A stretch of DNA of 64,000 nt from an uncultured delta proteobacterium (lineage in GTDB: Bacteria; Desulfobacterota; RBG-13-43-22), in NCBI GenBank assembly GCA_963790475.1, contig CAWBOS010000010.1, forward strand, positions 1,600,001 through 1,664,000, given 5' to 3'. Positions 19,346 to 57,075 of this stretch are shown here, one piece after another. Positions within the stretch are counted from its first letter, which is position 1. Each line of letters opens with the position of its first letter. A model generated the notes under the pieces. It made no database searches and had not been told where the DNA came from. It saw only the letters and a list, made by a program, of their open reading frames with translations. The position numbers and the translations under genes were made by a program.

Positions 19346-19484
19346 ACAGGTTGCTCAAAAAGGTCCAGATACAAGGCGCCCGAAATCCTGAGGAATGAGG
19401 CGTACATAGAAGTACGTCGCAATGACGAAGGATAAGGGCAATCCCGCCGTTGGCGGGATAGATGGGCCTTTTTCAGCAACCTGT
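19346..19484. mobile_element. MITE-like element with a nested TCCCGCC-GTT-GGCGGGA palindrome
   Basis: Ends ACAGGTTGCTCAAAAAGGTCCA and TGGGCCTTTTTCAGCAACCTGT are inverted repeats; non-coding; hairpin at 19441-19459. Confidence 0.65.
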
Positions 19485-22364: not shown

Positions 22365-22444
22365 GTCGTCACCCCTTGGTGAAAACCGGGGTCCAGGATT
22401 ATATCTAATTGACAATTCTGGATTCCGGCTTTCGCCGGAATGAC
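22365..22444. repeat. Family A REP-like repeat
   Basis: GTCGTCACCCC..GGTGAAAACCGGGGTCCAG..CTGGATTCCGGCTTTCGCCGGAATGAC. Confidence 0.8.
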
Positions 22445-34165: not shown

Positions 34166-34435
34166 CTCGGAAGAGCTGCAAAAAATAATGACAATCTGAA
34201 AAATTGTTCGGACCGAAACTTTAAGAAGTTTAATTTCGGGATAACATTATTACTGATAATCTCGTAATATGTCGTCATGCCGGTGAAAACCGGTCCCGCC
34301 TATAATTGTGCCATATGGCATTGAATGGTAAAATGATGATCATGATTGGTAAAGGAGTTAAGTCTACCCAGGCGAAGAAATCCAAGCCACGGGTTAGACC
34401 GAAATCCGTTTTTCAACCTCAAGGGGAGGACCGGC

Positions 34436-35257
34436 ATGATCAACAACTCAGCACTCCAAAAATGGGATCGACTGGCCCAGAAACAATTGGATCGACAGTT
34501 CATGAATGAAATCATCCAAGGTCTGCAATGCTCGCCTTTCGAAGCCGGTGCCATCCTGGACACCGTCTACAAAGTGTATCGACCTTATTTTGAAACCAGT
34601 GGCACGCTTAAGCCAGGGCAATTACTCTTTCAGGTAATTGCGGTGGAAGCGTCCCCGAATAAACCTTTAGCTCAGGGCCGACAAGTGACCGTAACGCTGA
34701 CTCTCGATTCCGGTCCGGAGGACCTGAAGATCCGAAAGCAAAAAGGGATCATCGGACTCAGGCAGCACCGACTCCAGCGGGTTTGTCACGAAGCCTTCCA
34801 ACAAGGAGGCTTGTTGACCCTGGAGGACTTGGCCAATCGGTTGTTCAATTGTGGCGAAAGAACCCTGTCTCGAGATCTACAGGCCCTCCAAGAAAAAAAG
34901 GTTCTCTTGCCCCTTCGTTCCACGATTAAAGATATGGGCCGTTCCATTTCCCATCGTAACCTAATCGTCCAGGAATGGCTCCAAGGAAAAGAATATACCG
35001 AAATCGCTCAGACCACCCATCATAGTATTCCTGCCATAAAAAACTATATCGACAAATTCAAACGGGTCATCGCTTTAACCGAGGAAGGATTTGACCGCCA
35101 TACCATCGCCTTCCTGGTCAAACTTTCGGCTCAACTGGTTGAAGTCTATTATCAGCTTTATCAAACTCTTACGATCGTTCCTCATCGGAAAGAAGAATTG
35201 CGCCTTTTTCTAAAAAAAAAGAGCCCCTTCCCGACGCCGCCCAGGAGGATCCGATGA
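34436..35257 (+). CDS. DUF1670-type protein, ORF A
   Basis: LKPGQ, EAFQQGGLLTLEDL, PLRSTIKDMGRSISH, EIAQTTHHSIPAIKNY; SD GGGAGG before the ATG at 34436. Confidence 0.78.
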   Translation: MINNSALQKWDRLAQKQLDRQFMNEIIQGLQCSPFEAGAILDTVYKVYRPYFETSGTLKPGQLLFQVIAVEASPNKPLAQGRQVTVTLTLDSGPEDLKIRKQKGIIGLRQHRLQRVCHEAFQQGGLLTLEDLANRLFNCGERTLSRDLQALQEKKVLLPLRSTIKDMGRSISHRNLIVQEWLQGKEYTEIAQTTHHSIPAIKNYIDKFKRVIALTEEGFDRHTIAFLVKLSAQLVEVYYQLYQTLTIVPHRKEELRLFLKKKSPFPTPPRRIR

Positions 35258-36003
35258 TTAAAGCGCCGGACAGTCAAAAACGATATAACGCCGCCAGAGA
35301 TCGCTTCCTCCAGGCGGGAATGATCAACTTTTTCGCCCGTGAATTCCCCAAACTCTTTGGCCCAGTGATGCGGCAAAAACTGGCCGAAGAAATTGTTGGT
35401 CTTTTTGAAAGCCTATCCCCGGAAGTCAAGCGACTGAAACCGGGGCAAATCCTTTGGAATGCCCTGGACCAGAAAACACGGGGCGATTCACCCCGCCGCA
35501 GATATGTTCCGGTCGTGTTATCCATCATTACCCCGGAGGATGTAGAACGACTGGCTCAAGGCCAGCCCCTGTCCCAGATCGCTGAAAAGGCCATCGCCCG
35601 CATAATCTTGGAAGCTCATGACCAAGGCGGCATCCTTTCCATGCGCGATATCGGCTTGCTCCTCTTAAAACATCCATCCCAGGTCTCTCGGTTAAGAAAA
35701 AATTATGAGAAAGATCAGGGCTGCACTCTGCCGCATACCGGTGCCTTACATGACATGGGATCTTGTCTGTCCCATAAAACCACCATTCTGCAGAAGGTAC
35801 TTGTCGAAAAAAAAGATCCGGCCGATGTCGCCAGAGAATGTCGTCATACTCAGCAAGCGGTCGACCGATACCTTAAAGACTATCATCGTGTTAAAACGGT
35901 TTATGACCAAAACCAAGACCTAAATTATATCCATATCGTAACCGGATTAGCCAAACATGTGGTTAAACAGTACATTAACATCGTCAATCATGAAAACTTT
36001 TAA
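35254..36003 (+). CDS. DUF1670-type protein, ORF B
   Basis: LKPGQ, EAHDQGGILSMRDI, LPHTGALHDMGSCLSH, DVARECRHTQQAVDRY; ATGA overlap with ORF A; SD AGGAGG. Confidence 0.78.
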   Translation: MIKAPDSQKRYNAARDRFLQAGMINFFAREFPKLFGPVMRQKLAEEIVGLFESLSPEVKRLKPGQILWNALDQKTRGDSPRRRYVPVVLSIITPEDVERLAQGQPLSQIAEKAIARIILEAHDQGGILSMRDIGLLLLKHPSQVSRLRKNYEKDQGCTLPHTGALHDMGSCLSHKTTILQKVLVEKKDPADVARECRHTQQAVDRYLKDYHRVKTVYDQNQDLNYIHIVTGLAKHVVKQYINIVNHENF

Positions 36004-36398
36004 CTTGACCCGCCATTTGGCGATAACTTTGGCGGGATGGATTCCGACTTTCGTCAGAATGACAAAAATATGCTTTCCGTTATTTTTTCGAGATCATTTT
36101 TGATCGATTCCGATATTTTAAGGATTACAATTCCATATATTTTACTGCCGTAGTAGTATTTAACCCCTTCCTGTTTTTACCGCTCCTCCCCATATTCTTT
36201 TTTTTCAAATTTAGACCGATAGTAATGCTAATAAATCAGCACTGTAGATTGATAGGCTTTAAAGAATAAGCTTAAAAATCTATTGGTGATAAAAATTGAA
36301 ATTTGTATTACTATATAAATTGCTTCTTTAATTGATCCGATCATAAGGCGATTTAGTCGTTATCCGACCCTGAAACAAAAAAGGAAGGGAAAGAAGAG

Positions 36399-56997: not shown

Positions 56998-57075
56998 GTC
57001 ATTCCCTTGAAAAAGGGAATCCAGTGTTTTTAATAAGTTGAGAATAGCCTGGATTCCCGCCTCCGCGGGAATGAC
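56998..57075. repeat. Family A REP-like repeat (dRS3-like ATTCCC-N8-GGGAAT)
   Basis: GTCATTCCCTTGAAAAAGGGAATCCAG..CTGGATTCCCGCCTCCGCGGGAATGAC. Confidence 0.8.

Follow-up and report, generated by a model that had tools for sequence, protein, structure and literature searches.

An insertion sequence of an undescribed family that carries only a pair of DUF1670 genes and enters short GC-rich palindromes

To our knowledge, every established family of insertion sequences (ISs) is defined by a known catalytic class, namely DDE, DEDD, HUH, serine or tyrosine recombinase. In IS911, IS2, IS30, IS110 and IS21-type elements, a -35 sequence lies in one end and a -10 sequence in the other, and a strong promoter forms only once the ends abut; for IS2, a minicircle pathway is described in the parts of the literature drawn on here. 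Repetitive extragenic palindromes (REPs) are known targets of the IS3, IS110, IS4, IS256 and IS5 families according to the parts of PMC1525189 used here, and therefore the choice of such a target is not new; in the same parts, no target duplication is reported for ISPa11. RAYTs and IS200-type elements are linked to REP-like hairpins in the parts of PMC3333891 that we cite. Here we analysed a 64,000-bp stretch (hereafter the window, C10:1600001-1664000) of the genome G000 of an uncultured delta proteobacterium, in which positions 34301..36027 (+ strand) are one copy of an IS of an undescribed family, whose sole genes are two paralogues of the Pfam family DUF1670. We regard it as highly probable that this is a mobile IS-like element with the ends and the target defined below. 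That it is also autonomous, with the DUF1670 proteins as its recombination proteins, we put at roughly 55%; this figure takes in, beyond the observed anatomy, copies, target and promoter geometry, a circle, DNA binding and catalysis that we infer.

The mobile unit is 1,727 bp long, running from TATAATTGT to GATAAC, and has a length of 1,716-1,766 bp in relatives. Its limits are set by the points where the sequence identity of copies in different flanks starts and stops, exactly at TATAATTGT-GCCATATGGC on the left and at TTGAC-N2-GCCATTTGGC-RWTAWC on the right, and by a comparison of filled and uninterrupted sites in the genome G084. This copy identity and the uninterrupted targets move the boundaries inwards from 34294 and 36037, where the initial annotation, made from the window alone, had placed them. 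The unit has a G+C content of 48.2%, compared to 49.7% for the window, and besides the DUF1670 pair contains no open reading frame (ORF) of 100 aa or more. The features of the insertion and its flanks are the following.

34271..34293, + strand: first hairpin of the host REP (GTCGTCATGCCGGTGAAAACCGG), outside the element; it also precedes copy 2 and the uninterrupted REP copies
34294..34300, + strand: 5' arm TCCCGCC of the target palindrome, host DNA, from uninterrupted copies and from arm variation among near-identical element copies
34301..34306, + strand: left terminus, a -10-like hexamer TATAAT (30 left ends: TATAAT 20, TATATT 7, other 3)
34310..34319, + strand: left subterminal palindromic 10-mer GCCATATGGC, a presumed protein-binding site, kept in relatives
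34362..34399, + strand: leader hairpin GTCTACCC...GGGTTAGAC, 5' of ORF A, in the position of the covarying stem-loop of 15 relatives but different in sequence
34436..35257, + strand: ORF A, 273 aa, DUF1670 by Pfam; ratio of nonsynonymous to synonymous substitution rates (dN/dS) 0.12-0.14
35254..36003, + strand: ORF B, 249 aa, DUF1670 by Pfam; dN/dS 0.08-0.15; structure model with a predicted local distance difference test score (pLDDT) of 89.6
36005..36010, + strand: -35-like hexamer TTGACC, 17 nt from the right terminus; TTGAC[A/T/C] at that distance in 37 of 42 right ends
36012..36021, + strand: right subterminal palindromic 10-mer GCCATTTGGC, kept in relatives
36022..36027, + strand: right terminal hexamer GATAAC, consensus RWTAWC, from copy comparison
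36028..36030, + strand: loop TTT of the target palindrome, host DNA; 2-4 nt that vary among otherwise identical copies (AC/GT, AG/CT)
36031..36037, + strand: 3' arm GGCGGGA of the target palindrome, host DNA, from uninterrupted copies and copy comparison
36038..36063, + strand: second hairpin of the host REP (TGGATTCCGACTTTCGTCAGAATGAC), from REP comparison

The motif shared by the two ends is a 10-bp palindrome with a 2-nt centre, GCCAWWTGGC, set back from the left terminus by 9 bp and from the right one by 6 bp; only 33 such sites exist in the 6.34-Mb genome. The sequences first quoted as inverted ends are all present, and their 10-mers GCCATATGGC and GCCATTTGGC do belong to the element, whereas the outer TCCCGCC/GGCGGGA are arms of the host target. 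The ORF B stop lies 8 bp before the right end as initially drawn, that is, before a 26-bp right repeat beginning at 36012.

The comparison in G084 gives the mode of insertion. The filled site reads CCTCCCTTT, element, TCC-AAAGGGAGG, and an uninterrupted palindrome elsewhere in G084 reads CCTCCCTTT-TCC-AAAGGGAGG on one strand; hence zero bases are gained or lost, the element enters where the 5' arm meets the loop, which stays on the right. Consistent with the initial annotation, no target duplication is seen in this comparison, in the REP comparison or at the C12 fragment described below. In general, left flanks close with an arm such as ...CCGCC, and right flanks open with 2-4 variable bases followed by the complementary arm. 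Perfect arms of at least 4 bp with a 2-4-nt loop at the right were found at 23 of the 28 loci with both flanks, compared to 3 of 28 for control flanks displaced by 10 nt. The target is a short GC-rich interrupted palindrome, typically CCGCC-N2-3-GGCGG and here a REP subfamily, which is entered in one orientation. The own genome holds two copies, a 5' fragment and a 3' stub in different contexts, and the defined ends are common to at least 28 loci. The proposal of an IS-like mobile element that targets palindromic repeats has held: homologous pairs keep the conserved ends in different flanks and are not syntenically fixed, and further copies with shared ends and different flanks occur in the own genome and in metagenomes.

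Abutting the two ends with zero bases between them creates TTGAC(N)-17 nt-TATAAT, a near-consensus sigma-70 promoter directed toward ORF A. At the junction of the window element, TTGACC (36005-10) and TATAAT (34301-06) are separated by 17 nt, and 27 of 30 left ends open with TATAAT or TATATT. The termini had been fixed beforehand from flank comparison, and not from promoter spacing, and a spacing of exactly 17 nt therefore tests them independently. By analogy with IS110, IS911 and IS30, the junction promoter points to a circular or tandem intermediate; since it reads into both genes, these would be needed after excision.

The PF07900 (DUF1670) hidden Markov model, which has a gathering score of 25 bits, matches ORF A with 159.4 bits (E 1.2e-46) and ORF B with 163.7 bits (E 5.2e-48), confirming the two paralogues that had been recognised from the letters as the only genes. 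The start of ORF A is most likely ATG 34436 rather than TTG 34346, with GGAGG upstream and the ATGATCAATAAC start kept in 21 aligned leaders. ORF B, preceded by AGGAGG, starts within the stop of ORF A (ATGA), and its own stop occupies 36001-36003; the two ORFs are translationally coupled paralogues. The dN/dS of 0.08-0.15 indicates purifying selection on both genes. Among 88 sequences with a mean column identity of 30%, His174 and Tyr206 (ORF B numbering) are invariant, and R116, A121, Q124, L128, P160, D167, G169, K175, H198 and Y240 are conserved in at least 90%; the motif LPxRGxxHDxGxxxxHK holds five of these 12 residues (P160, D167, G169, H174 and K175).

The AlphaFold model of ORF B (pLDDT 89.6, predicted template modelling score 0.72) consists of an N-terminal helical part, one β hairpin and three helix-turn-helix (HTH)-like helical modules. 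Both proteins look like pure multi-HTH DNA binders without a recognisable catalytic fold. The predicted complex of ORF A and ORF B scored 0.24, which counts neither for nor against binding. The search of the ESM Atlas gave only weak HTH clusters (at most 0.81), and those of PADLOC and PHROGs only weak HTH-level matches. Ten longer relatives have extra DUF1670 repeats and, in four, N-terminal regions of ~170-220 aa with no assigned domain; one carries a CHC2 zinc ribbon, and no known catalytic domain was found in any of the ten. P0135, P0141, P0151 and P0184 (930-952 aa), P0199 and P0238 (532-544 aa) and P0168 (400 aa) are fusions, either of three or two DUF1670 repeats or, in one case, of a DUF1670 and a zinc ribbon of the primase-type CHC2 family. 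A search of ~8.4 million papers and preprints by family identifiers (DUF1670, PF07900, IPR012871) found no paper on the family.

Based on these features, we propose that the element would be excised and its ends joined as a circle or a head-to-tail junction, the promoter of which would drive ORF A and ORF B, so that the proteins would be made once the intermediate forms. Through their HTH modules, the DUF1670 proteins would contact the GCCAWWTGGC sites close to either end as well as the target palindrome, and the pair would integrate the junction into a new palindrome between its 5' arm and loop, carrying out or directing strand breakage and joining itself. Candidate active-site residues would be the invariant His174 and Tyr206 and the LPxRGxxHDxGxxxxHK linker. 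More tentatively, and with somewhat less than an even chance, DUF1670 might be an unrecognised class of HTH-module recombinase or transposase, a paralogue pair or a fused two- or three-repeat protein that integrates a circle at a stem-loop boundary without duplication. Catalysis would then fall to the invariant His and Tyr of the LPxRGxxHDxGxxxxHK-HTH region, possibly assisted by the leader, and all DUF1670 proteins (759 representative clusters at 50% identity) would form one IS superfamily of bacteria and archaea.

Several observations weigh against an autonomous element moved by its DUF1670 pair. A Foldseek search with the ORF B model returned no PDB match at E<=0.001, the best being MntR, sigma and TFIIB-like HTH proteins, and among PDB sequences a profile search hit nothing but a designed HTH repeat. 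Pfam (E<=0.1) detected no known transposase or recombinase family in either protein, and NCBIfam, which includes the IS-transposase naming models of NCBI, has no family for either, in line with the early remark that no recombinase motif is evident. In addition, Tyr206 and Tyr240 fall where HTH recognition helices often carry Tyr, and their conservation may be structural. Assembled contigs of four sequencing runs contained no circle junction; such contigs lose rare forms, and this result is therefore uninformative. No genuine empty site for this insertion was found in 13 same-genus genomes, where the flanking gene pair is not adjacent. Moreover, left-right flank pairings in metagenome contigs may be chimeric, which is probably behind the cases of imperfect arms.

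The alternative that survives best, although we consider it rather unlikely, is a non-autonomous element, in which the DUF1670 pair only binds DNA as a regulator, targeting or retention factor, whereas cutting and joining are performed in trans by a Y1 HUH transposase, by a RAYT acting on the hairpin or by a host hairpin-cleaving enzyme. TnpB is an accessory protein in IS605-type elements, and SbcCD cleaves hairpins 5' of the loop. Such a division of labour would fit the presence of only HTH folds in the proteins, the 20 Y1_Tnp and 17 IS110-type matches in the own genome, and the resemblance to IS200/IS605 of an element that enters 3' of a short motif, duplicates nothing and has no terminal inverted repeats. 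The occurrence of Y1_Tnp in 10 of 11 DUF1670-positive genomes, versus 293 of 401 in the phylum sample, also leans this way; however, the excess is weak, given a base rate of 73% and related genomes that are not independent, and the genome G289 has a complete pair but no IS110-type gene. Neither end has long subterminal hairpins like those of IS200/IS605, and a promoter at a double-stranded junction misfits a single-strand circle. Across genomes assigned by their labels to different phyla, the two-gene unit is retained with the same ends at protein identities of 58-91%. The pair, although of no recognised catalytic family or fold, makes up the sole genes of the unit, and no conventional transposase is part of it, let alone a constant part, which had been named as grounds for giving up the proposal; the purifying selection on both genes, and a promoter that exists only at joined ends and reads into them, argue for a role in transposition. 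An autonomous element remains our preferred reading.

Fifteen relatives have a stem-loop in the interval from the left palindrome to ORF A, the only place where a covarying hairpin was found. Each of its nine outer pairs is paired in 15/15 relatives, with two to three pair types, and its apex, GGAAGGA-GGGC-GUA-GCCC-GACUGGA, is kept. These compensatory changes, and a position downstream of the junction promoter that matches the layout of IS110 non-coding regions in the parts of the literature used here, might suggest that a leader RNA made from this promoter takes part in recombination, like the bridge/seek RNAs of IS110/IS1111, with the DUF1670 proteins as its partners. We think this improbable. 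Judged against bridge/seek RNAs, the leader does have a structure, but its conserved loop shows no covariation with the arms of the target: the apical motif GGAAGGAGGGCGUAGCCCGACUGGA is constant while the arms vary (CTCC, CCGCC, CCTCCCTTT), which disfavours a programmable guide RNA for the arms. In addition, the window element carries at this position a hairpin of another sequence (34362-34399) and still has the same kind of target, Rfam has no match for the leader, and a hairpin there could simply regulate translation or block read-through transcription. Its pattern of conservation leads us to assign the leader a regulatory or protein-binding role and not that of a programmable guide.

The flanks of the window element are the two halves of a REP, as first described. 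Genome-wide, the pattern of the second REP hairpin has 169 matches, 128 of which have a ~32-bp spacer. At least six uninterrupted REP copies in the own genome instead read AACCGG-TCCCGCC-AAA-GGCGGGA-TGGATTCC, with the same junctions as at the insertion. The loop AAA is common to five of these six hairpins, compared to TTT at the insertion, and these five look like one repeat subfamily. The spacer, noted initially as missing, was not deleted by the insertion: the target belonged to this subfamily, which has TCCCGCC-AAA-GGCGGGA in place of the ~32-bp spacer. The window itself contains three full REP copies (second halves at 22419, 31515 and 41553), two variant ones (57023 and 57050) and a partial one (1476), rather than the seven intact copies counted at first. 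When aligned to the window, contigs from the sequencing runs skip 1,730 bp (34301-36030) with AAA in place. By their flanks, with sides of 21 and 29 nt, these AAA-joint contigs (34300 to 36031) stem from REP copies elsewhere in the genome and not from an empty site. A contig of a ~91%-identical relative in run X3 joins 34171 to 36161, with a shorter side of 45 nt, and in the population of this relative both the REP and the element may be absent here.

Most copies, in several phyla, are flanked by CCGCC/GGCGG, and the six REP copies carry a hairpin exactly at the junction positions, so TCCCGCC and GGCGGGA could be taken for the true terminal inverted repeats of a 1,744-bp element, with the TCCCGCC-NNN-GGCGGGA hairpins of REPs as its excision footprints. 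This is very improbable in our view, because copies that are 99.9% identical differ in their arms in a compensatory manner (GTCGCGCC/GGCGCGAC, GTCCCGCC/GGCGGGAC and GGCCCGCC/GGCGGGCC), which assigns the outer 7 bp to the host palindrome. Other copies have the arms CTCC/GGAG, CCCTCC/GGAGGG, CCTCCCTTT/AAAGGGAGG or one 14-bp arm, and an insertion in a coding region has CCACC. Moreover, a loop AAA in five of six REP hairpins resembles a subfamily rather than a set of footprints, a second REP family contains this hairpin as well, and the 17-nt promoter spacing works only with termini at 34301 and 36027.

The second REP family, at window positions 19443-19457, reads …GACGTAC-N6-GTACGTC…GGGCAAT-CCCGCC-GTT-GGCGGG-ATAGATGGGC…, and also contains the CCCGCC-N3-GGCGGG hairpin. 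Copy 2 on C6 has this family as its right flank, and the hairpin is a module common to several REP types. At window positions 56998-57075, two variant REP second-half units (TGGATTCCC…GGGAATGAC) are inverted and ~25 bp apart, like a doublet of bacterial interspersed mosaic elements.

The own genome contains four pieces of the element: the window copy, copy 2, a 525-bp fragment and a 13-bp stub. Copy 2, at C6:754424-756144, is 100% identical across 1,721 bp and is preceded by the same kind of REP arm. At its right end, the element-internal ...TTGACCCGCC is followed directly by the loop and 3' arm of another REP family (CCCGCC|TAC-GGCGGGA-TTGCCC), and the terminal ATTTGGCGATAAC is absent. The stub, a right end at C10:1434291, reads TCCCGCC|ATTTGGCGATAAC|AGG-GGCGGGA and is the exact piece absent from copy 2, within a target hairpin. 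In the window element, an internal CCCGCC is able to pair with the 3' arm of the target, mimicking the boundary of 5' arm and loop. In the simplest reading, excision at this look-alike right boundary would have left the stub in the donor, and the shortened element would have reinserted at C6.

The 525-bp 5' fragment, at C12:1412914-1413438, lies within an RND pump gene between ...FPEFAPPL and VVI*TEAPGLSPEQVE, with zero residues lost. Its target is CCACC^AGG-GGCGG with one ambiguous C, and the fragment ends at an internal TTGACCC. This insertion extends the target rule to coding DNA, with an arm other than CCGCC. The ends of the stub, copy 2 and the C12 fragment, compared in sequence, suggest excisive movement and cleavage at arm-loop boundaries. 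The left breakpoint of the fragment in L014 has no target-like motif and looks like a plain deletion. The interrupted pump gene itself (L003 ~1480-1500, G000:C12) is broken by an in-frame TAG at a position expected to be Gln in relatives (VVI*TEAPG). The RND operon has a G+C content far above that of the window, and none of the 13 same-genus genomes holds related DNA; the operon may have been acquired as an island or may stem from contamination of the assembly (genome contamination estimate 9.68%).

DUF1670 occurs in 11 of the 401 sampled genomes of the phylum, G000 included, and in 0/10 other same-genus genomes; a DNA search did not find the element in the 13 same-genus genomes. The search with the ORF A protein gave 1,526 homologues. 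For 113 of the best 120 of these 1,526, the longest contig is at most 3,215 bp, and for the other seven the longest contigs, among the matches listed, are 3,552-106,501 bp. With ORF B as the query, an exhaustive search returned 759 representative clusters at E<=0.001. Ten divergent representatives are mostly on short contigs of 1.3-7.1 kb, including a 944-aa triple-DUF1670 protein on a 3.4-kb contig, and one cluster has members on 17- and 20-kb contigs. Such element-sized contigs are the effect of a multicopy IS on short-read assemblies. Six loci with 58-91% identity to ORF B are in genomes labelled Desulfobacteraceae, Bacteroidales, Sphingobacteriales, Calditrichia, "uncultured bacterium" and "delta proteobacterium", and 33 metagenome loci have 60-84% identity. 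Element bodies that are 99.9-100% identical are found in different flanks, with further flanks in contigs of another study. A tblastn search of plasmids gave no match, and the Pfam control search also matched Methanosarcina. An immobile pair of regulatory genes located in a REP by chance, as the resemblance of multi-HTH proteins to transcription factors might suggest, is hardly credible, given the identical and near-identical copies and fragments in different contexts, the homologues on element-sized contigs and the absence of the element from the same-genus genomes searched.

At L018 (G299:C223, ~1250-1330 and ~2290-2410), a single DUF1670 gene lies between nearly perfect ~75-bp inverted repeats. 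This arrangement is unlike the two-gene unit; it may represent a segment that inverts or a further type of element.

At G000:C13:478877-480514 and C15:486193-486888, further copies of the ~250-bp repeat that contains the REP are interrupted by a different element, which has the ends CTTCTATGTTGAAAAGCAAGTCTTTTTTAT. The C13 copy has an IS110-type (PF01548) match at 479900-480337, and hence the REPs here are hit by at least two unrelated elements. In addition, multicopy IS200-like elements at G000:C10:353396, 602813, 893418 and 971229 have a hairpin CCCCGCCC-TAA-GGGCGGGG with Y1_Tnp ~155 bp downstream; this hairpin is similar, but not identical, to the target palindrome of the DUF1670 element.

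The DUF1670 element is abundant, spread across phyla and common in environmental bacteria, and has the anatomy of a site-specific IS that forms circles, although DUF1670 proteins are all that it encodes. Should they catalyse its movement, they would represent a new enzyme class for mobile-DNA biology, and a compact recombinase of ~520 aa in total that targets structures and leaves no duplication. If they are not catalytic, the element would show how a DNA-binding pair recruits host hairpin-processing enzymes for precise insertion. Either way, an orphan Pfam family gains a function, the ~2-kb contigs that break assemblies of sediment and soil metagenomes are accounted for, and the dynamics of REPs and other palindromic repeats have a new player.

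We rate the element as outside the known IS families, in a comparison made without ISfinder, and it may already be listed under another name. Compared to the DDE families IS3, IS4, IS5 and IS30, it has no DDE match in Pfam, only two short strands in the ORF B model and no duplication. Elements of the IS911/IS2/IS30/IS21 type likewise have a DDE enzyme and target duplications, whereas here the joined ends have exactly 17 nt of spacing with zero bases between them. The IS3-family elements IS1397 and ISKpn1 differ by a DDE (rve) OrfB, terminal inverted repeats and short duplications, none of which is found here, but share the insertion into REP palindromic units and the two-ORF layout, according to the parts of PMC1525189 used here. 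RIT elements also have tandem paralogous genes between inverted sequences, the likeness drawn in the initial annotation. However, theirs are tyrosine recombinases, whereas no Phage_integrase domain (R-K-H-R-H/W-Y) or fold was detected here, and the inverted sequences are mostly the host target.

More is shared with IS200/IS605, which moves by the "peel and paste" action of the Y1 HUH TnpA, and with RAYTs. Besides the mode of insertion noted above, these have a fixed orientation, an association with REP-like hairpins and truncated derivatives that end at look-alike cleavage motifs. By contrast, the unit contains no Y1_Tnp (PF01797) or TnpB, the Y1 genes being elsewhere in the genome; its subterminal palindromes are 10-mers, too short for stable hairpins, and the junction promoter implies a double-stranded joined form.

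IS110/IS1111 elements, such as IS621, ISPpu9, ISPpu10 and ISPa11, are moved by a DEDD recombinase with a bridge/seek RNA. The present unit differs from them in having no DEDD_Tnp_IS110 (PF01548), RuvC-like or Transposase_20 (PF02371) domain (E<=0.1), two HTH-only paralogues instead of one recombinase, a leader motif that does not covary with the target, and an insertion point defined by a stem-loop boundary. Like the DUF1670 element, they insert into REPs or other palindromes in an orientation-specific manner and without classical terminal inverted repeats, as stated in the parts of PMC1525189 drawn on here. The sources, as far as used, also describe a circular intermediate with a promoter made at the junction, which we infer for the present element, and a structured non-coding leader ahead of the gene. 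Altogether, the closest working analogy for this element would be IS110/IS1111 or IS200/IS605.

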